From assembly GCA_022703055.1 (NCBI GenBank), contig JAKLEP010000003.1, positions 150,238 through 214,237 of the forward strand: a stretch of 64,000 bases of DNA, given 5' to 3'. Numbering within the stretch: the first letter of the stretch is position 1; each line of letters starts with the position of its first letter. A model generated the notes under the pieces. The model searched no databases, was not told where the DNA came from, and saw only the letters and a list, made by a program, of their open reading frames with translations. This DNA comes from Candidatus Omnitrophota bacterium. GTDB lineage: Bacteria; Omnitrophota; Gorgyraeia; VGKH01. A program made the position numbers and the translations under genes. Below, piece by piece: positions 291 to 63,266 of the stretch.

Positions 291-392
291 AAATCTCAGT
301 CCCGGTTCCCTCTAATTAAATTTTCCTCATCAATGAGCGCTTGACTTATGGAGCCCAGCGACATAAGTCAATTGCGCGAATTGATCCCGAGC
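291..392 (-). repeat. structured palindromic repeat, copy A (three-segment hairpin 329-385)
   Basis: Blocks 302-340 (39 nt) and 373-392 (20 nt) are identical to 996-1034 and 1069-1088. The central arms TTGACTTATG/CATAAGTCAA differ from copy B only by compensatory changes. Confidence 0.7.
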
Positions 393-984: not shown

Positions 985-1088
985 AAATTTGAGGACCGGT
1001 TCCCTCTAATTAAATTTTCCTCATCAATGAGCGCGCAACTTATGAAACGACAGTGAACATAAGTTGCATGCGCGAATTGATCCCGAGC
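985..1088 (-). repeat. structured palindromic repeat, copy B (three-segment hairpin 1023-1081)
   Basis: Same conserved blocks as copy A. The central arms GCAACTTATG/CATAAGTTGC flank a 13-nt loop. The repeat lies between the XRE gene stop and the 480..968 gene start. Confidence 0.7.
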
Positions 1089-2915: not shown

Positions 2916-3329
2916 CTATTTTATAAAATCAAAATATAACGCAATGACCAGGGCAATCGCCGAAACAGCAAAGATAAAGAAATAATTCATCCTCTCTTTG
3001 CTTGAGCTCAGTTCGCAGAGGATCTTTCCGATAAGCCTGGCCTCATCGCTGTTTAACTCTTTCTTCTCGGAAACCTTATCAATCAAATTATTTCTGGCGA
3101 CCAGCCTTGTCAGCGACTGGTTTATCGCATACTTGTAAAGAAAAAACAGGAAAAACCCGCCCACGCCCACATACCAGGCGATCTTACCGTAAATCTCATC
3201 TAAATGCGCTAATACCGTCACCACTCGCACCGCGATAGTGGCGACCAGGCCAATGGCGAAAAATATCCATGAGATATAGCTGTCATTGCAAATCTTGTTT
3301 GCTTGGCAATTTTTGCACTGCTTCTTCAT
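2916..3329 (-). CDS. hypothetical membrane protein
   Basis: 137 aa with a Cys-containing N-terminus (CKNCQANKIC) followed by several hydrophobic helices. Confidence 0.5.
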   Translation of the reverse strand: MKKQCKNCQANKICNDSYISWIFFAIGLVATIAVRVVTVLAHLDEIYGKIAWYVGVGGFFLFFLYKYAINQSLTRLVARNNLIDKVSEKKELNSDEARLIGKILCELSSSKERMNYFFIFAVSAIALVIALYFDFIK

Positions 3330-4461: not shown

Positions 4462-5172
4462 CTAAGCTTCGGTTTTAATTTTCCAAGGTTCCTCAACAGA
4501 AACATTATCCTGCTTTTCCTCTTGTTTGGCAAGCTTTCGATGTTCCTTTAGGTGGGCTCTTGCGTCCATGATAATTTTCAAGAAAATGAACAGGCAAAGG
4601 CCGACTATCGGCGAGCCTAGAGCCATTAAAAGGAATCCGCCAAAAAGAATGCTGACATGCAAGAGAACGATCCTCTGGTAAGGCGAAAATAAAAGCAAGC
4701 CCAGATTAGAGCGGCGATATTCGCCCTTTAACAAATAATTCCAGAAAAAGGAAAATGCGTGTCCCAGGAAAATAAACAACGCAGCCTCGCCCAGGCGCTG
4801 ATTTTTTATCGTCGCCATTACCAAATCAAAGTTTGGCGCCTGGCCTTTAAATACCGGCATGCCAAATAAAAAGAATACAAACACCCCATGCACCGCGGTA
4901 AACATTCCGTAATGTACGCAGAAAAACGGAATGATAAATAGCTTGGCTAAATGCTCTTTTGGTTCTTTTGCCGCAACAAAAATCATCCTGGCAACATTGA
5001 ATACGCCGACAATGACATTCTCGAACCAATAAAGGAATATTATCGAGAAAACCGTCCAACCCAAAAAGAAAACGCCAAAAAAAGGAAAAAGATTAACCGC
5101 GATGAGAAATATTACTGACGGGCTGGCAAAATCTAATCGATGTTCTTTAATTTGCGGCTGTGAATTATTCAT
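4462..5172 (-). CDS. polytopic membrane protein (DUF6498-like)
   Basis: Multiple TM helices. The motifs FLGWTVFSIIFLYWFENVIVGVFN and FFCVHYGMFTAVHGVF resemble that family as I recall it. Confidence 0.55.
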   Translation of the reverse strand: MNNSQPQIKEHRLDFASPSVIFLIAVNLFPFFGVFFLGWTVFSIIFLYWFENVIVGVFNVARMIFVAAKEPKEHLAKLFIIPFFCVHYGMFTAVHGVFVFFLFGMPVFKGQAPNFDLVMATIKNQRLGEAALFIFLGHAFSFFWNYLLKGEYRRSNLGLLLFSPYQRIVLLHVSILFGGFLLMALGSPIVGLCLFIFLKIIMDARAHLKEHRKLAKQEEKQDNVSVEEPWKIKTEA

Positions 5173-5971
5173 TGGTCGGTTTAGGCTGCTCCATTACTTC
5201 CTCATTCACCAGATTCCCGTGGCGGTCATATTCCCTGCCCACAACTTTTCCGTTCTCGTTGTAATTAATAATCCCGTGGATAGTTCCGTCTTCGTAATAG
5301 ACTTTGCTTATGGTTTTCTGGTCATTGTCAAATTCCGCCTGCAGCTGGCCGTTTTCGTAATAAATCTTGCTTATGCCGATATCGCGTAAGTCTTTAACAG
5401 TTGCTTGGCGCTGCAATTGTCCGTTTGGATAGTAAGTCTTTAAAGGCCCGTTCATTTCCCCGTCTTTATAAGTGCTTTCCTGAGCGAGATTGCCCTCAGG
5501 GAAATATCTCTTGGCCAGGCCGTTTTGCTTGCCCTCTTTATACATAATCTCTGCGGATAATTTACCGCTGGGATAGAAAGTAGTGCGCATGCCATCAAGC
5601 TTATCATCAATAAAATTAAAAATCTGCTTAGTCTTGCCGTCTTCGAAATATTCCGCTGCCTCACCCTGGCGCATGTTGTTCTTGAAATTCTCCTTAAACT
5701 TCTCCTGGCCGCCTGGGTAATATTCTGCGGCAACCCCATCAGGAATCTCGCCAGTTCTTTGAATAACATTAAAATTCCTGTCTAAACATAGCCGGGCAAT
5801 TTCTTTTTCTTCGATATAATACCCGATGTAGTGAGTGTCGCACTGGGAAGGCCCATAAAATTCCATACTAAGATCCACAGTTTTTCTGATTACTTCCTCC
5901 GGAAAAGCTGAAGCGAAGTTTAACAATAAACCCATGCCGGCGATTATTAGAATAAATAATATTTTTTTCAT
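5165..5971 (-). CDS. exported MORN-variant repeat protein (YwqK-like)
   Basis: Signal peptide, then repeated Y(Y/F)xxGxL/K units (YYPNGQL, YYENGQL, YFPEGNL, FYPSGKL, YFEDGKT). Confidence 0.7.
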   Translation of the reverse strand: MKKILFILIIAGMGLLLNFASAFPEEVIRKTVDLSMEFYGPSQCDTHYIGYYIEEKEIARLCLDRNFNVIQRTGEIPDGVAAEYYPGGQEKFKENFKNNMRQGEAAEYFEDGKTKQIFNFIDDKLDGMRTTFYPSGKLSAEIMYKEGKQNGLAKRYFPEGNLAQESTYKDGEMNGPLKTYYPNGQLQRQATVKDLRDIGISKIYYENGQLQAEFDNDQKTISKVYYEDGTIHGIINYNENGKVVGREYDRHGNLVNEEVMEQPKPTNE

Positions 5972-6003
5972 ATTTCTCCCTAATTGTAATTTTAATCTAG
6001 ATA

Positions 6004-6909
6004 CTATGTGCCTTTTGGAACACTAGTGAAATTTTCCTCATTGCATCTATAAAAAATTCCCAATAAACGCATCTGAATAAGCATAATATAAAAAGAAATA
6101 AGATCCGAGATAAAAAATCCTAAGATAGGCAAACCGATTAAGAGCATTTTTATCGTGCGGCTTACATATGCGGCGGCAAAAAATAAAGCCACGATAATTA
6201 AATATTGAAGCGGCGCCTTGAGGATTGAATTTGCGATTAGAAAAGGATTGAAAGCCACAAATTTTCCTGTCATAGCTATAATCAAAAACATCATAGGATA
6301 AATGAATTGGCCTAAAACGATCAAGGCCAAGAAAACAGCATCGGCTTGTTGCGCTTTAAATAAGTATATAACTGACGGGACAAAACAAACAACAGCAGCC
6401 AGAATAATCAAGAAAAGCCGGCCGAATATCAATTCCGTCCAATCATTCATCCCAGGGAACTCCGGGGGCTGATTATCGCCGTAAGCGGAAGTCTCCAAGA
6501 CCAATAACATATATTCTAGAATATAGCTAACTAAAATCAATAACAGAGGCAGACCAAAAAGCCAGGCCATTCTTGCAATAGCGAAAAATATGGAAAAGAA
6601 TATTGAACCGACCAAAAGCATTATTTTACCATTTTTCCTGAAAGGATAGATGAATGAAGGAATAATCTCTGACCAGAAAGAGGTTGTGATTAGGACTTCT
6701 GCTGTTTCTGACGCCATTACAGGGCCCGAAACATGCTCAGAAGAAGACTCTTTTTGCGCCATCTTTTCGCATCTTCCCCCGCAGGAACGGCAGGTGTATG
6801 GCAGAGAGGCTTTTGCTTCGTTGACATAGACACATTCCTGGCAGAAATAACCGCCACAACCCATGCAATAAAAAAGAGCGTCTCTGTCGATATGTTTTTT
6901 ACATAACAT
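6004..6909 (-). CDS. membrane protein with an N-terminal B-box-like zinc finger
   Basis: N-terminus CKKH-x10-CMGCGGYFCQEC...CRSCGGRC, followed by about six hydrophobic helices. Confidence 0.6.
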   Translation of the reverse strand: MLCKKHIDRDALFYCMGCGGYFCQECVYVNEAKASLPYTCRSCGGRCEKMAQKESSSEHVSGPVMASETAEVLITTSFWSEIIPSFIYPFRKNGKIMLLVGSIFFSIFFAIARMAWLFGLPLLLILVSYILEYMLLVLETSAYGDNQPPEFPGMNDWTELIFGRLFLIILAAVVCFVPSVIYLFKAQQADAVFLALIVLGQFIYPMMFLIIAMTGKFVAFNPFLIANSILKAPLQYLIIVALFFAAAYVSRTIKMLLIGLPILGFFISDLISFYIMLIQMRLLGIFYRCNEENFTSVPKGT

Positions 6910-33805: not shown

Positions 33806-33881
33806 TGGTGGAGCAGATGAGATTTGAACTCACGACCCCCTCGTTGCGAACGAGGTGCTCTCCCAACTGAGCTACTGCCCC
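33806..33881 (-). tRNA. tRNA-Ala (anticodon CGC), CCA encoded
   Basis: Reverse complement: GGGGCAGTAGCTCAGTTGGGAGAGCACCTCGTTCGCAACGAGGGGGTCGTGAGTTCAAATCTCATCTGCTCCACCA. It forms a cloverleaf with a G3:U70 pair, the anticodon loop TTCGCAA, and GTTCAAATC in the T-loop. Confidence 0.95.
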
Positions 33882-35098: not shown

Positions 35099-35509
35099 TT
35101 ACTGGCAAGCAGGGCAAACGGCAAACCCATACGAATTACAGGGAGTCCCTACTAAGTTATTGCAACACAAGCAACCAGTTGCATCAATTTGCAGTGAATA
35201 TGCACCACCTGTTCTTGTCATGGTTATCGTGCCCGTTCCTGCTCCGCTACAGGCCGGAGCTCCAAAATTCTTGATAGTTGTCCAGGTAGTATCCAGACCA
35301 GTACAGGATGCTTCTACTAAATAGTTACCGTTATTTGCTGCGGCATATCTTTCATTAGCTGTTCTTAAGTCGCCCAACAAACTCATTGCCTCTGTGGCGC
35401 GCCCCTTTTCTGTACCTCCAGTAAATCTAGGAATAGCTATCGATACGATTATACCCAAGATAATTACTACGATGATTAATTCCAATAATGTAAAGGCTTT
35501 GTTTTTAAT
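35099..35509 (-). CDS. cysteine-rich type IV pilin, paralogue 2 (probable ATT start)
   Basis: About 80% identical to the 35631..36038 pilin. The track ORF begins at a TTG inside the conserved FTLLE motif. The in-frame sequence upstream reads IKNKAFTLLE back to a TAA stop, with no ATG/GTG/TTG. ATT at 35509-35507 lies 5 nt after GGGGG. Confidence 0.6.
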   Translation of the reverse strand: MKNKAFTLLELIIVVIILGIIVSIAIPRFTGGTEKGRATEAMSLLGDLRTANERYAAANNGNYLVEASCTGLDTTWTTIKNFGAPACSGAGTGTITMTRTGGAYSLQIDATGCLCCNNLVGTPCNSYGFAVCPACQ

Positions 35510-35630: not shown

Positions 35631-36038
35631 CTACTGGCAAGCAGGGCAAACTGCCATTCCGTAGCCAGCGCAAGGCGTTCCCACAAGATTATTGCAGCAT
35701 AAGCATCCGGTTGCGTTAATCTGTATTGAATACGCGCCGCCGGTTCTTGTCATAGTTATTACGCCGTTTGCTGCATCGGTACAGACTGGTGTTCCAAAGT
35801 TCTTAAGGGTAGTCCAGGTAGTATCTAAACCTGTGCAAGTAGCATTTACCAAATAGTTGCCGCTATTTCCTGCAGCATATCTTTCATTGGCAGGCCTTAA
35901 TGACCCCAATAAACTAATTGCTTCCGTAATTCTGCTCTTTTCAGTTCCACCAGTGAATCTGGGAATAGCAATCGATACAAGTATGCCTAAAATTATTACT
36001 ACAATGATTAGTTCCAGTAATGTAAAACCTCTTTTCAT
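35631..36038 (-). CDS. pilA: cysteine-rich type IV (major) pilin, paralogue 1
   Basis: MKRGFTLLELIIVVIILGILVSIAIPRF prepilin leader with Gly-1/Phe+1/Glu+5. AGGAGG SD. 8 Cys in the globular part. Confidence 0.85.
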   Translation of the reverse strand: MKRGFTLLELIIVVIILGILVSIAIPRFTGGTEKSRITEAISLLGSLRPANERYAAGNSGNYLVNATCTGLDTTWTTLKNFGTPVCTDAANGVITMTRTGGAYSIQINATGCLCCNNLVGTPCAGYGMAVCPACQ

Positions 36039-48376: not shown

Positions 48377-51175
48377 TTAAGCTAATTTCTCACGCAGGTA
48401 TTCCGCAGTATAAGAAGCTTTATTATTGGCGATTTGTTCGGGACTGCCGCAAGCGACAACCTTGCCACCCCGGTCTCCGCCTTCAGGGCCCAAATCCACA
48501 ACATAATCTGAGCATTTTATGACCTCTAGGTTATGCTCGATGACTATCACGGTATTACCCTTATCTACCAAGCGCTGCAAGACATTAATCAGCTTATCCA
48601 CATCGGCAAAATGCAAGCCTGTAGTAGGCTCATCCAACAAATATAAGGTTTTTCCGGTTGAGAATTTGCTTAATTCGGAAGATAGCTTAACTCTTTGAGC
48701 TTCGCCGCCGGAAAGCGTGGTCGCCGATTGGCCCAATTGAATATATCCTAGCCCAACGTCTTTCAAGGTTGATAAGGTCTGTTTTATTTTAGGGATATTC
48801 TCAAACACAACTAGAGCATCTTCTACTGACATATTAAGGATATTAGCTATTGAATAGCCTTTGTATTTTACTTCCAGGGTTTGTTCATTAAATCTTAAGC
48901 CGTTGCAGACCTCGCAGACAACATAGACATCAGGCAGAAAATGCATTTCGATTTTCTTGATGCCGTCTCCCTGACAGGCCTCGCATCTTCCGCCTTTAAC
49001 ATTAAAACTGAATCTTCCCGGTTTGTAACCGCGCAGCTTAGCTTCGGGAAGCATACTAAAAATATTCCTGATATGGCTGTATACTCCGGTGTAAGTTGCC
49101 GGATTTGAACGAGGAGTTCTTCCAATGGGCGATTGATCCACCACGATTACTTTATCGATATTATCAACGCCCTTAATCTGTGAATGCTCTCCCGGCCTTT
49201 CTTTAGATTTATATATTTTCTTGGCCAAGGCCCGATACAGAGTCTCGTCTATCAAAGTAGATTTTCCTGAGCCGGACACACCTGTTATGCAAATAAAATT
49301 CCCCAAAGGAAACTTAACGTTGATATCTTTCAGATTGTGTTCCTTGGCCCCTATAATCTCAATCGATTTATTTTTTCGATAATCTCTTTTATTGGGGACT
49401 TTTATATCCAGTTTCCCGTTAAGATATTTTGCCGTCAAAGATGCATGGGACTTAAGCAGCTCATTTAACGGTCCGGCAAAGACCACTTCTCCACCGTGCT
49501 TTCCGGCGCCCGGGCCCAAATCTATCACATAATCCGCAGCCTTAATCGTTGCTTCATCATGCTCAACAACAATAAGGGTATTGCCCAAATCGCGCAATGT
49601 TTTTAACGTGGCGAGCAACTTTGAATTATCTCTTTGATGCAATCCAATACTTGGTTCATCTAAAATATAAACTACGCCCACCAAACCTGAACCAACTTGT
49701 GTGGCAAGCCTGATTCTTTCTGATTCTCCGCCGGAAAGCGTGCTGCTTTTTCTATCCAGCGTCAGATAATCCAGGCCGACATCAATACAAAAAGACAATC
49801 TTCTTATGATTTCTTTTAGAACCTGATGTGCGATAATGGTCTTTTCTTGAGACAGCTTTAGGCCAACAAAGAACTCTTTGGTATCCTTAATAGACATCTT
49901 GGTGATGTCCCAGATTGACTTCTCTTTAATCCTTATAGCCAGGCTCTCTTTTTTTAACCTTGCGCCATTACAGACCGGACACGGCAGAACCGACATAAAA
50001 CGCGAAATCTCATTTTTTAGATAATCACTTTCCGTCTGATGAAATAATCTTTCTAGATGCGGAATCAGCCCTTCAAATCTCCTGCCCCAAATCCATTGAT
50101 CAGCGCCATAAAGAATAGCCTTCTGTATGTCTTTGCTTAGTTTATTAAAAGGTGTTTCAATATTAAAATTTAAATTATGAGCCAGCTCCCGTAGCATTCC
50201 GCGATAATAAAGAATGTAGCCTCTTCCGCCTCGTTTCCAAGGCTCGATCGCCTCAAGCACCGGCTTGGTTTTATCCGGGATAACTAAGTCTGCATCGAAT
50301 TCTAACTTTGTACCTAAGCCATTGCACGCCCCGCAGGCGCCGTAGGGAGAATTGAAAGAAAAAATCCGCGGCTCGACTTCCGGTAAGCTTATTCCGCAAA
50401 CCGGACAACTGTATTGTTCGCTAAACAGGATATCTTTCTTTTTATCAATATTATGAACGATTACTATGCCCTGGCCGACATTCAAAGCTGTCTCTATAGA
50501 ATCAGCAAGCCTTTTTTTGACCTCCGCGTCAATAGATAGCCTGTCGACAACTACTTCAATATTGTGAATCTTGTATTTATCTAATTTGACTTTATTCTCA
50601 ACTTCGTATATCTTGCCGTCAATGCGTAGTCTGACAAAACCGGCTTTCTGAGCTTGAGAAAAAACATCTTTATATTCACCCTTTCTACCACGGATCAAAG
50701 GAGCCAATATCTCAATCTTGGTTTTCTTGGGCAAAGCTAATACCTGAGCGACTATTTCTTGAGATGACTGTTTTTGTATCGGACGATTGCAGTTATGGCA
50801 ATAGACCGTACCAATCCTAGCAAATAAAAGCCTCAAGTAATCGTAAATCTCTGTTTGGGTGGCTACTGTTGAACGCGGATTGCCGCTGGCCGTACGCTGC
50901 TCAATAGCTATCGCCGGAGACAAACCCTCGATATATTCGATATTGGGCTTCTGGAGCTGCTCTAAGAATTGACGGGCATAACTGGAAAGACTTTCAACGT
51001 AGCGTCGCTGGCCTTCGGCATAAATTGTATCAAAAGCTAAAGATGATTTTCCTGAGCCGCTTAATCCGGTAACCACTACGAGCTTATTACGCGGAATCTT
51101 TAAGTTGATATCCTTAAGATTATGCTCTTTTGCTCCATGAATAATAATGAAATTATTTTCTATTTGTTTTGTCAT
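48377..51175 (-). CDS. uvrA: excinuclease ABC subunit A
   Basis: 932 aa. Two ABC modules ([18 protein letters not shown]; LSGGE signatures) and zinc-finger Cys pairs. Confidence 0.95.
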
Positions 51176-62165: not shown

Positions 62166-62175
62166 TTTACCCCTT

Positions 62176-62381
62176 TTTAATGAGCGCATAACTTACGGAG
62201 TTAGAAACGACGTAAGTTATAAGCGCAAATTAAACCCCGCCCTCTATGCCCGCAATTTAAACTTAACGTTTTAGAGAACGAAATAATCTTTTTTGCGTTT
62301 CCCACCCAATGCCAACGCTTAGAGGGCGGGGCAAATTCAGCCTACAAACTTACGTTCACTTCCGTTCCATAAGTTTGGGCT
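62176..62381 (-). repeat. composite structured element: two ACTTAYG-loop-CRTAAGT hairpins flanking a GC-rich 12-bp stem
   Basis: Hairpin 1 is 62339-62381 and hairpin 2 is 62184-62226 (extended 62176-62234). The long-range stem pairs CCCCGCCCTCTA (62235-62246) with TAGAGGGCGGGG (62320-62331). The element fills the whole dapA-dapB spacer. Confidence 0.7.
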
Positions 62382-63266
62382 TCATTTGCCTTTCAATAAA
62401 CCGTAATCCTTTAAAGCCTTCTTAACTTTCTCCAGATTTTCATCTGACATGGTGCATAGCGGCAGCCTCAAATCCGGACTGCACATACCTAGTAATCCCA
62501 TCGCGGTCTTTACCGGGATAGGATTGGTTTCAATAAACATCGCCTTGGTTAGAGGCAGGAGCTTATAGTGGATTTCTTCGGCCTTCTGAATATTCCCTTT
62601 CTTAAATTCACTGACCATATTGGCTACATCGCGCGGGACAATATTGGCGACGACGGAAATTACTCCTATTCCGCCAATAGCCATAAGCGGCAAGGTCAAA
62701 GAATCATCGCCAGAAATCAATTGAAAACTCTTAGGGCAAATCTGCCTAATCCTTGACATCTGGTCCAAAGAACCCGAAGCCTCCTTGACGCCTACAAGAT
62801 TCTTGCAATCATTGGCGAGCCTAGCAATAGTCTCAGGCTCAATGTTTACTCCTGTCCTTCCGGCAATATTATAAAGGATAATCGGTATCTTGACTGAATC
62901 GGCAATCGCCTTAAAATGCAAATACAGCCCTTTTTGCGTCGGCCGATTATAATAAGGGCTGACCTGTAATGACGCATCAGCTCCGACCTTTTCTGCATGC
63001 TTAGTAAGCATTATCGCTTCTTCGGTGGAGTTAGAACCCGTTCCGGCCATAACGGGAACTCTTTTATTGACTATCTCAACAGTCAATTCAATCACCCGAT
63101 CATGCTCTTCGAAATTCAAAGTAGGCGATTCTCCGGTTGTGCCACAGGGCACTATCCCACTTGTTCCATTCTTAATCTGGAATTCGATTAATTCCGCATA
63201 CTTTTTCTCGTCAATCTTCCCATTCTTAAAAGGCGTGACTATCGCTACCAATGAACCATCAAACAT
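62382..63266 (-). CDS. dapA: 4-hydroxy-tetrahydrodipicolinate synthase
   Basis: GSLVAIVTPF, GTTGES, and the active-site Lys region. The ATG at 63266 follows AAGGGGGA; the track start at 63317 would overlap dapF by 59 nt. Confidence 0.9.
   Translation of the reverse strand: MFDGSLVAIVTPFKNGKIDEKKYAELIEFQIKNGTSGIVPCGTTGESPTLNFEEHDRVIELTVEIVNKRVPVMAGTGSNSTEEAIMLTKHAEKVGADASLQVSPYYNRPTQKGLYLHFKAIADSVKIPIILYNIAGRTGVNIEPETIARLANDCKNLVGVKEASGSLDQMSRIRQICPKSFQLISGDDSLTLPLMAIGGIGVISVVANIVPRDVANMVSEFKKGNIQKAEEIHYKLLPLTKAMFIETNPIPVKTAMGLLGMCSPDLRLPLCTMSDENLEKVKKALKDYGLLKGK

Follow-up and report, generated by a model that had tools for sequence, protein, structure and literature searches.

Several described systems resemble the element considered here. 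Miniature inverted-repeat transposable elements (MITEs), among them Correia/CREE in Neisseria, ERIC in enterobacteria and RUP and BOX in Streptococcus, are short repeats with inverted ends; the REP, BIME and REPIN repeats of E. coli and Pseudomonas are palindromes accompanied by RAYT transposases; and GIY-YIG nuclease genes such as the T4 seg genes and that of I-TevI occur as cassettes in their own right. A minimal 'bacterial Slx1-like' GIY-YIG lineage has also been recognized (Dunin-Horkawicz et al., 2006; PMC1564403). Here we analyse a 64,000-nucleotide stretch of a Candidatus Omnitrophota genome (GenBank assembly GCA_022703055.1, contig JAKLEP010000003.1, positions 150,238 to 214,237 of the forward strand), referred to below as the window, and in particular the 216-base spacer between its dapA and dapB genes (62166-62381). 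The spacer belongs to a family of hairpin units of two types with fixed polarity, physically linked to GIY-YIG genes. It is probably a non-autonomous, MITE-like copy of a multi-copy intergenic cassette family of Omnitrophota operons whose full-length members carry a nuclease gene. The family of paired hairpin cassettes is apparently undescribed: our literature search, the coverage of which was incomplete, found nothing linking Omnitrophota to such repeats or GIY-YIG proteins to bacterial palindromic repeats.

The genes at the locus lie on the minus strand in the order dapF, dapA, dapB, a hypothetical gene and an aminotransferase gene. The spacer between dapA and dapB contains two 59-nt hairpin units inverted around a 12-bp palindrome, and the whole element is about 214 nt long (62176-62389). 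The first hairpin, originally described as AGCC...GGCT at 62381-62339 on the minus strand, follows the dapA stop codon (TGA, 62384-62382). With its outer helix counted it spans 62389-62331, and it therefore overlaps the last two codons and the stop of dapA (GGC AAA TGA). We call this the L unit; on the minus strand it reads GCAAAT-GA-AGCC-CAAACTTATG-loop-CGTAAGTTTG-TA-GGCT-GA-ATTTGC. A repeat search gave the 5' inner arm CCCCGCCCTCTA (62320-62331), the inner part of the left terminal inverted repeat. It is followed by a 73-nt loop (62247-62319) containing a GCGTT/AACGC hairpin (62318-62314 and 62299-62295) and by the 3' inner arm TAGAGGGCGGGG (62235-62246), which pairs with CCCCGCCCTCTA to form the 12-bp stem. 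The second hairpin (TTTAAT...ATTAAA, 62176-62234), which we call the R unit, reads TTTAAT-GA-GCGC-ATAACTTACG-GA-GTT-AGA-AAC-GA-CGTAAGTTAT-AA-GCGC-AA-ATTAAA on the plus strand. This is the forward strand of the family, and the dap mRNA holds the reverse complement. Directly after the R unit come the dapB Shine-Dalgarno sequence AAGGGG (62175-62170), four nucleotides and the ATG (62165-62163); read from this ATG, DapB is 100% identical to a public Omnitrophica DapB. The original prediction, made from the letters of the window, had placed the hairpins, the 12-bp stem, the inner hairpin and the Shine-Dalgarno sequence correctly, and had rightly said that a structured element fills the entire spacer (compared with shuffled sequence, z = -4.9 for the minus and -7.2 for the plus strand).

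The window contains two further units near its start. The core motif ACTTAYG-N(8-20)-CRTAAGT occurs at four sites (344, 1038, 62191 and 62348) and in none of 100 shuffles; the first two lie in copy A (329-385, plus strand) and copy B (1023-1081, plus strand), both solo R units. All four units share one three-helix rod fold (z = -4.8 to -7.0); the L unit of the spacer folds in this way with z = -5.7 and its R unit, folded as DNA, with z = -6.4. We built a covariance model (R1) from an alignment of 84 R units (A1). Copies A and B scored 69 and 75.3 bits, and the spacer R unit reached 72.3 bits when read on the plus strand and 30.9 bits when read on the minus, all three being members of the seed alignment. 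Kinship between the spacer and the copies at 0.3 and 1.0 kb, which had been proposed, is thus borne out in score and in fold. The L unit was outside the seed and scored 54.7 bits (E = 3e-11), and its relatedness to the family is therefore shown independently. The claim that the first hairpin resembles copy B was right as to relationship, but the hairpin is of a distinct type (L) from the second hairpin and copies A and B (R), and is longer than first drawn.

The first half of the unit consensus, on the forward strand, is (T)TNAAT-GA-GCNC-NNN-ACTTAYG-GA followed by a variable stem with a GNA or GNNA loop. The second half is GA(A)-CRTAAGT-NNN, then either a bulge of 1-2 nt or, as some subfamilies have it, a mini-hairpin at the side (e.g. 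GCGAAGC), then GNGC-GA-ATTNAA-CCC.... Units are 57-64 nt long, and the bases invariant in the 84-unit alignment are AATGAGC...ACTTA.G...C.TAAGT...GAAT. The parts are an outer helix, a GA/GA loop, a 4-bp clamp, a 10-bp stem with the ACTTAYG/CRTAAGT core, a bulge on the 3' side and a GA-flanked distal stem-loop. Over 118 distinct units 97.4% of the paired positions are standard pairs, compared with 77.8% in column shuffles and 28-35% with slid partners, and both sides change at 15 of the 19 pairs (405 cells). As pairing exceeds the controls and most pairs change on both sides, the helices are real, and the covariation first noted in the outer helix is seen across the family.

Mismatches of the two kinds are equally rare in these stems. 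In alignment A1 (84 R units) there are 11 G-T and 15 A-C mismatches, and in a further alignment, A3, there are 9 and 10 in R units and 8 and 16 in L units (17 against 26 in total). The suggestion that a U-G wobble marks the minus strand as a functional RNA is not supported by these counts and does not hold generally. Both 2x2 internal loops are tandem G-A/A-G on the forward strand (84/84 and 79/84 units); the 'UC bulge' of the original prediction is indeed conserved, but is really this strictly conserved tandem GA/GA seen from the opposite strand. Most terminal loops are cGNAg (31) or cGNYAg (24), and a few are cGNRAg (8). GNA and GNYA loops are classic stable DNA mini-hairpin loops, and GCGAAGC is one of these. 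Of 291 units, about 92% fold more stably as the forward strand than as the other. Stems that are almost purely Watson-Crick, the tandem GA, the loop types and the greater stability of the forward strand favour folding at the level of DNA, or copy-and-paste from perfect master copies, over selection on an RNA helix, but they are suggestive only.

In order to establish how far the family extends, we scanned one genome per GTDB species with the R pattern AATGAGC-N5-ACTTAYG-N(8-18)-CRTAAGT. This gave at least 120 loci in at least 89 assemblies, where by our own rough estimate about a dozen matches would be expected by chance. Nearly all of the matches listed are titled Omnitrophota or Omnitrophica; the rest are PVC-group TPA metagenome-assembled genomes labelled Planctomycetia or Planctomycetales, and metagenome-assembled genomes may hold misbinned contigs. 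The same pattern had no match in the viral contigs of IMG/VR, and a phage origin of the family was set aside. Run over the fetched loci, about 1.35 Mb in total, the covariance model recovered 314 units, which confirms that copies exist well beyond the window, and its strand call is unambiguous (about 70 bits forward against about 27 on the other strand). Having been built from R units, the model under-detects L units and degenerate units; for partner units it was more sensitive than nhmmer. With the ascertained unit at each locus discounted, the density is about one unit per 15 kb, with which the four units in 64 kb of the window are consistent; extrapolated roughly, each genome would hold about a hundred copies. 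When metagenomes were scanned with the 5' arm of the window L unit (the AAATGAAGCC...GGCTGAATTT subtype), at least 65 true L units were found in many contexts among at least about 119 matches, the remainder being chance-like.

The two unit types are arranged in a regular way. R units have the form TTNAAT-GA-GCNC..., and L units have the form (G)TCAAAT-GA-AGCC...GGCT-GA-ATTTGA or ATAAGT-GA-GGNC...GNCC-GA-ACTTAY. Units that are close neighbours stand tail to tail in 38 of 49 cases (38 in the order plus, minus and only one in the order minus, plus), and 74 of the 82 pairs are heterotypic, consisting of an L and an R unit. By a crude open reading frame (ORF) caller, 118 R units adjoin the start of a gene and 16 a stop, while among L units 78 adjoin a stop and 21 a start. 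Of the pairs, 43 have L beside the stop and R beside the start, with one reversed, and a convergent-gene setting was seen in only one of 98 resolved contexts. The upstream stop codon lies within the L outer helix, being the TAA of ATAAGT or TTAAAT or the TGA of AAATGA, inside TTNAATGA or ATAAGTGA. At the other end, 78 cases have a Shine-Dalgarno core, and in 53 of these it begins no more than 1 nt from the end of the R unit. The remaining 40 of the 118 R-adjacent genes have no Shine-Dalgarno sequence and their ATG lies 0-4 nt past the unit (e.g. L012, L115, L249:2842 and L031:4775); leaderless mRNA after processing, translational coupling and a standby site are possible routes to their translation. 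The window element conforms to the family pattern, with the dapA stop in its L unit, a palindrome between the units and the dapB Shine-Dalgarno sequence after its R unit. The terminal inverted hairpins that first suggested a MITE are thus the L and R units together with their inverted arms.

The hairpin unit adjoins more than 100 unrelated genes. Downstream of it lie housekeeping genes of many kinds, and the 110 proteins that they encode carry 144 Pfam families, including DnaK, GroEL, trigger factor (tig), enolase (eno), RpoA, RpoC, IF-1 (infA), SecY, rplR, ClpP and PFK. Only about five downstream gene families recur among the 110, by a rough estimate close to the four or so expected by chance, and shared orthologous position was discarded as a sign of function. 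The spc operon at L031 has the order L6, an L+R pair, L18, and further on L15, three R units, secY. Here the pair lies between rplF (L6) and rplR (L18) at 2966-3150 and the three tandem R units between rplO (L15) and secY at 4533-4774; the secY ATG is 3 nt past the last unit and has no Shine-Dalgarno sequence.

Between oriented L and R units the interior is always a CCC...GGG palindrome, which falls into a few recurrent arm classes (CCCAGCACTAATTTT, CCCTTGACAT, CCCCACACC..., CCCCCCACCACTTTT and CCCGCCC...). One arm class contains TTGACA; this belongs to the palindrome, has no consistent -10 element behind it and was rejected as a promoter. In at least nine cassettes in the loci fetched by pattern, the palindrome encloses a GIY-YIG gene. 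Its loop is then 255-296 nt long and encodes a protein of 73-98 aa, co-oriented with the operon. Such ORFs are present in L145, L151 (duplicated as L163), L039, L174, L239, L171 and L220 (two copies); the copy in L140 is frameshifted and that in L158 is a truncated C-terminal remnant. In the direction of the operon, a full-length member consists of an L unit of about 59 nt with the upstream stop codon in its outer helix, an inner arm of 13-15 nt, the 73-98-aa GIY-YIG (UPF0213/Slx1-like) gene, the complementary arm and an inverted R unit of about 59 nt, after which comes the Shine-Dalgarno sequence or start. At L063 the interior of two inverted units 2.4 kb apart consists of ordinary host genes, and it was rejected as an autonomous form.

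All six of the ORFs tested matched Pfam PF01541 (GIY-YIG). The nearest solved structures are those of the UPF0213 proteins EF2693 (1ywl, E = 7e-11) and BH0048 (1zg2), and matches to SLX1 are weak. The positions of the catalytic Tyr, Tyr, Arg, His and Glu are invariant in the cassette ORFs, and the arm class tracks the nuclease clade. Judged by sequence similarity, the cassette protein belongs to the minimal bacterial Slx1-like lineage.

The link between nuclease and units was also approached independently, starting from the protein. A search at E <= 1e-8 gave 3573 homologues, bearing names from Omnitrophota and Patescibacteria, and encoding loci were fetched. An L unit is immediately upstream in all three of the Omnitrophota genes tested. 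At L249/L251 the order is purM (stop in AAATGA), L unit (2424-2482), arm, GIY-YIG gene (2501-2758), arm, R unit (2773-2841) and the purD ATG at 2842. At L247 and L248 the L unit is directly upstream (59-60 bits) and the R unit is weak or degenerate. Neither L nor R units are present at the Patescibacteria locus, L253, although two GIY-YIG genes of this protein family, each encoding 84 aa, stand there in tandem (2199-2755). The nuclease family thus extends beyond the hairpin family.

Some side features of the L units touch the nuclease gene. In L units of the AAATGAAGCC type the ATG opens a short frame (MKPKLTERSERKF...). With a bulge of 2 nt this frame closes at the TGA of GGCTGAATTT; with a bulge of only 1 nt it runs in frame into the GIY-YIG ORF (L171:1016-1316 and L039:3902-4261). 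In some of these units GGAGG lies 5 nt upstream of the ATG. As a conserved mini-ORF this frame (MKPKLTERSERKFVG) was rejected, since peptide lengths vary and early stops are frequent. In the window, frame 2 of the 73-nt loop ends ...ETQKRLFRSLKR and bears a weak resemblance to the nuclease C-terminus LKxRLKESLK. The resemblance is not significant (E = 0.55), and the loop was not accepted as a nuclease-gene remnant.

The history of the dapA/dapB junction can be read from related genomes. A homologous element fills the junction only in the window and in L002/L003. In L001, L004/L005, L006, L254, L255 and L256, six of the eight related lineages examined, the junction is empty and tight (-4 to +3 nt), so that the comparison with empty sites called for at the outset could be made. 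A tree from four neighbouring proteins has the form (window,(L001,L002)), with L004 and L006 as outgroup. Taken together, the tree and the pattern of filled and empty junctions imply that the element was inserted once, in a common ancestor, into an ancestrally tight junction and was later lost by deletion from one sister lineage, L001, where a single overlapping ATGA is left.

Despite sequence differences between the window and L002, every helix is perfectly paired in both. The arms are CCCCGCCCTCTA in the window and TCCCGCACCTTTT in L002, the R clamp is GCGC in the one and GCAGAC in the other, where there is an extra side hairpin, and two pairs of the L unit differ. Since the L002 variant of the L unit, with the same loop, is found also at L180, concerted evolution or gene conversion is at least as likely as independent compensatory mutation. 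In L002 (9808-9884) two partners are available to the 5' arm TCCCGCACCTTTT, namely the distal arm AAAAGGTGCGGGA and a near-copy in the loop, AAAAGGTACGGGA; the analogous alternative pairing in the window, CCCGCCC with GGGTGGG, is weaker.

The simplest reading of these observations is that the element is a GIY-YIG gene between terminal inverted repeats that are long (about 75 bp, made up of a unit and an arm) and imperfect. On the same reading, pairs without an ORF, the window copy included, are MITE-like deletion derivatives in which the 'central palindrome' is simply the two inner arms joined. We file the window copy with these because only 73 nt separate its arms and no GIY-YIG ORF is present. 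It shares the anatomy of the units, as judged by score and fold, and the composite of L unit, palindrome and R unit; the full-length form with GIY-YIG gene is absent. It is also short, non-coding and multi-copy and has terminal inverted repeats, as MITEs do, and longer elements exist that have the same ends and arms and encode the GIY-YIG protein, whose mobilizing role is putative.

A mechanism can be proposed on this basis. The units and arms would fold as DNA hairpins or cruciforms and serve as terminal inverted repeats, and the folded ends would be cut or otherwise processed by the structure-specific-type GIY-YIG nuclease of the family. Recognition of a hairpin or cruciform would fit because the relatives of the nuclease are structure-specific. 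For copies without the gene, such as that in the window, the nuclease would be supplied in trans and the element copied or moved. The element would be co-transcribed with its operon, and might be tolerated there since it supplies a stop codon itself and either spares or introduces a Shine-Dalgarno sequence. Polarity would then arise by selection, if compact, translationally coupled operons admit only the orientation with the stop upstream and the Shine-Dalgarno sequence or start directly downstream. Pairing of the arms and hairpins in the mRNA may place the dapA stop near the dapB start. In full-length copies, where the nuclease ATG lies at the foot of the arm and has no Shine-Dalgarno sequence, pairing of the arms may limit translation of the nuclease.

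Several points weigh against this reading. There is no GIY-YIG gene within the 64-kb window, and no nuclease-bearing cassette with the window arm class (CCCCGCCC) was seen in the fetched loci. Unit-less GIY-YIG genes occur in operons at L004, L164 and L149 (9624-9908), and the nuclease genes could have been inserted secondarily into pre-existing palindromes. At L004:3240-3536 (also L005:517-813) the gene encodes 98 aa and lies between argD and argF with overlapping stop and start codons; it is missing from the same junction in L002 and L006. We know of no transposase or homing enzyme that is a bare GIY-YIG domain of 75-100 aa without a DNA-binding domain. A target-site duplication is not definable from the filled and empty dapA/dapB junctions, which show AATGA/ATGA repeats only; the flanking AATGA repeats are explained by the invariant end of the element and the ATGA of dapB. 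The loci were chosen by sequence patterns and their gene contexts come from a simple ORF caller. Finally, the 43:1 polarity, neighbours such as dnaK, groEL, rpoA, secY and rplR, and the upkeep of pairing in place suggest a function at the level of the host that a purely selfish model does not require.

The best of the alternatives builds on this last point. It holds that the units are a host intercistronic RNA module that punctuates the operon, with the GIY-YIG genes as secondary passengers. The L unit would shield the upstream cistron at its 3' end, the R unit would shield the downstream one at its 5' end or define that end, and processing between them would set relative expression. A polarity fixed with respect to transcription, the almost complete lack of convergent settings, the near-constant offset from R unit to Shine-Dalgarno sequence and the genes, such as secY, whose ATG follows the unit without one would all be expected of such a module. 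The presence of units within the spc ribosomal-protein operon and upstream of dnaK, groEL, tig, eno, rpoA, rpoC, infA, secY, rplR and clpP would also be expected, but so patchy a distribution would not, with six of eight related dapA/dapB junctions empty and few downstream families recurring. The structures likewise point both ways. Arms that are complementary across an ORF of 250-300 nt suit RNA pairing better than cruciform extrusion, whereas stems that are nearly pure Watson-Crick, with G-U no commoner than A-C in either type or orientation, are atypical of selected RNA helices, and GNYA and GNA loops are favoured over GNRA. Moreover, the L and R units are opposite in the mRNA, so that only L carries the stabilizing GA/GA there, and we found neither a sigma-70 promoter nor an intrinsic terminator in the spacer (no -35/-10 hexamers and no GC-rich stem with a T-run). 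We consider RNA punctuation an unlikely explanation of the family as a whole. It is nevertheless a live rival, and a host role in processing or stabilizing cistrons is compatible with the mobile-cassette model, the two not being mutually exclusive.

Considerably less probable is that the units are REP/BIME- or REPIN-type repeats mobilized by a RAYT (Y1/HUH) transposase acting on single-stranded DNA hairpins, the GIY-YIG genes being incidental. Extragenic palindromes at about one per 15 kb, in two inverted types with characteristic linkers like the Y and Z REPs of E. coli BIMEs, with conserved strand-asymmetric mismatches and Watson-Crick-only stems, do recall such repeats. However, the conserved 5' GTAG tetranucleotide is not present in the 84-unit alignment, the units have 59 nt and three helices rather than 20-40 nt, and their core sequence is conserved far deeper than is usual for REPs. 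The gene found between unit pairs encodes a GIY-YIG protein, and with E. coli RayT as the query in phmmer and jackhmmer, the 1.35 Mb or so of family loci sampled yielded no RAYT-like or Y1 transposase ORF. A RAYT/IS200-like Y1 ORF on the minus strand of L131 (about 5970-6470; phmmer E = 3e-6) is on an unrelated contig of 48% GC that was a chance pattern match and has no family units.

A cis-regulatory RNA specific to dapB, such as a lysine or diaminopimelate riboswitch or an attenuator, is suggested by the position of this highly structured spacer 5' of dapB in a lysine-pathway operon and by the possible alternative pairings of the L002 central arm, but is effectively refuted by the adjacency of the same hairpin unit to more than 100 unrelated genes, its absence from most orthologous dapA/dapB junctions, the lack of a terminator in the spacer and the lack of any match to an Rfam family, the lysine riboswitch included. 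Even at E values up to 10 the spacer gave only chance-level hits to unrelated Rfam families. Of the two possibilities that had been left side by side at the outset, a MITE-like insert and a dedicated cis-acting RNA of dapB, the first has stood and the second has not, with more than 100 unrelated neighbours in at least 89 assemblies.

Other features of the window may be noted briefly. After many of the solo R units comes a further hairpin, (T)CCC-GA-stem-loop-GA-GGG(A), which echoes the tandem-GA theme of the unit itself (also in L011, L017 and L026). On the plus strand, after copy A, it is TCCC-GA-...-GA-GGGA (385-438), and after copy B it is a mini-hairpin, TCCC-GA-GCGAAGC-C-GA-GGGA (1081-1100). 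Copies A and B also have in common an extra module of about 38 nt (..CCGGTTCCCTCTAATTAAATTTTCCTC; 291-328 and 985-1022) on the gene-start side of the R unit, which lies outside the general family consensus. Beside copy B, at 1099-1150, are two adjacent copies of GGCGCGCGCCCGAAAT, each with a GC-rich palindrome, which overlap the 3' end of a minus-strand ORF (1129-1827). A tRNA gene at 33809-33881 on the minus strand (67 bits) is the only match in the window at the Rfam gathering thresholds. Diverged direct repeats of 72-81% identity (35100-35399 and 35632-35931, about 0.5 kb apart; 48455-48719 and 49481-49742, about 1.0 kb apart) appear to be coding segments of tandem paralogues and have no relation to the hairpin family.

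What began as one odd spacer is a finding at the level of a family: a structured, strictly oriented intercistronic cassette across an uncultivated phylum, present even in the spc, groESL, dnaK and rpoA operons. For annotation, the units should be masked as repeats and not be called as riboswitches, small RNAs or small ORFs. The data offer a concrete, testable role for small stand-alone GIY-YIG (UPF0213/Slx1-like) proteins, suggest a mobility mechanism that operates via folded DNA ends, and raise the question of how genes are translated that start 0-4 nt past a 24-bp hairpin without a Shine-Dalgarno sequence. More speculatively, and with rather less than even confidence, we propose that minimal Slx1/UPF0213-type GIY-YIG nucleases may be the mobility enzymes of an unrecognized class of prokaryotic mobile elements, recognizing terminal repeats folded as hairpins or cruciforms and not linear sequence, with elements that are 'operon-neutral' in having a stop codon at one end, an end compatible with a Shine-Dalgarno sequence at the other and an RNA that pairs with itself. 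If this is true, such elements could colonize even ribosomal-protein and chaperone operons phylum-wide, sometimes replacing the native translation-initiation region of the downstream gene.

Among known systems, MITEs are similar in being small, non-coding and multi-copy with terminal inverted repeats, in sitting in transcribed intergenic regions where they form long hairpins in mRNA, and in deriving from a longer element with the same ends. They differ in that each terminal repeat of the present element is a 59-nt three-helix hairpin with tandem GA loops. Its two ends are distinct (L and R), its orientation is fixed relative to the flanking genes, and it overlaps the stop on one side and directly adjoins the Shine-Dalgarno sequence or start on the other. 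In the putative autonomous partner a minimal GIY-YIG nuclease is encoded instead of a DDE transposase, no target-site duplication was seen, and the family is conserved phylum-wide, not genus-wide. The REP, BIME and REPIN repeats share with it abundance as extragenic palindromes, two inverted repeat types with defined linkers, concerted evolution of copies and conserved strand-specific mismatches. Unlike them, the present units have no GTAG, are longer and branched, stand in a polar manner beside start codons and enclose a GIY-YIG gene, and no RAYT was found. The ends of IS200/IS605 elements (PATE) are direct, on the same strand, and are served by the Y1 TnpA; here the forward strands of L and R are opposite (38 against 1) and no Y1 gene was found in the sampled loci.

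The nearest parallels for the gene are in part elsewhere. Like the T4 seg genes and I-TevI, it is a GIY-YIG gene lying between conserved genes, co-oriented and dependent on their transcription, polymorphic in presence and absence, and with weak or occluded translation signals. In contrast, the Seg proteins and I-TevI have large DNA-binding domains and belong to a UvrC-like lineage, whereas the cassette protein is a catalytic domain of 73-98 aa only, of Slx1/UPF0213 type (PMC1564403). The present element is also cellular and numbers roughly a hundred copies in a genome; its ends are structured inverted repeats, and some of its derivatives lack the ORF. The UPF0213 or bacterial Slx1-like proteins (EF2693, BH0048 and YhbQ) are the best matches of the cassette ORFs and share the minimal domain without an auxiliary domain. 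In the literature searched they are regarded as housekeeping or repair proteins of unknown role, whereas in the present case inverted hairpin repeats enclose the genes, which behave like the cargo of a repeat family. By analogy with these systems, the element would appear to work like a MITE or BIME/REPIN combined with a free-standing homing-endonuclease cassette.

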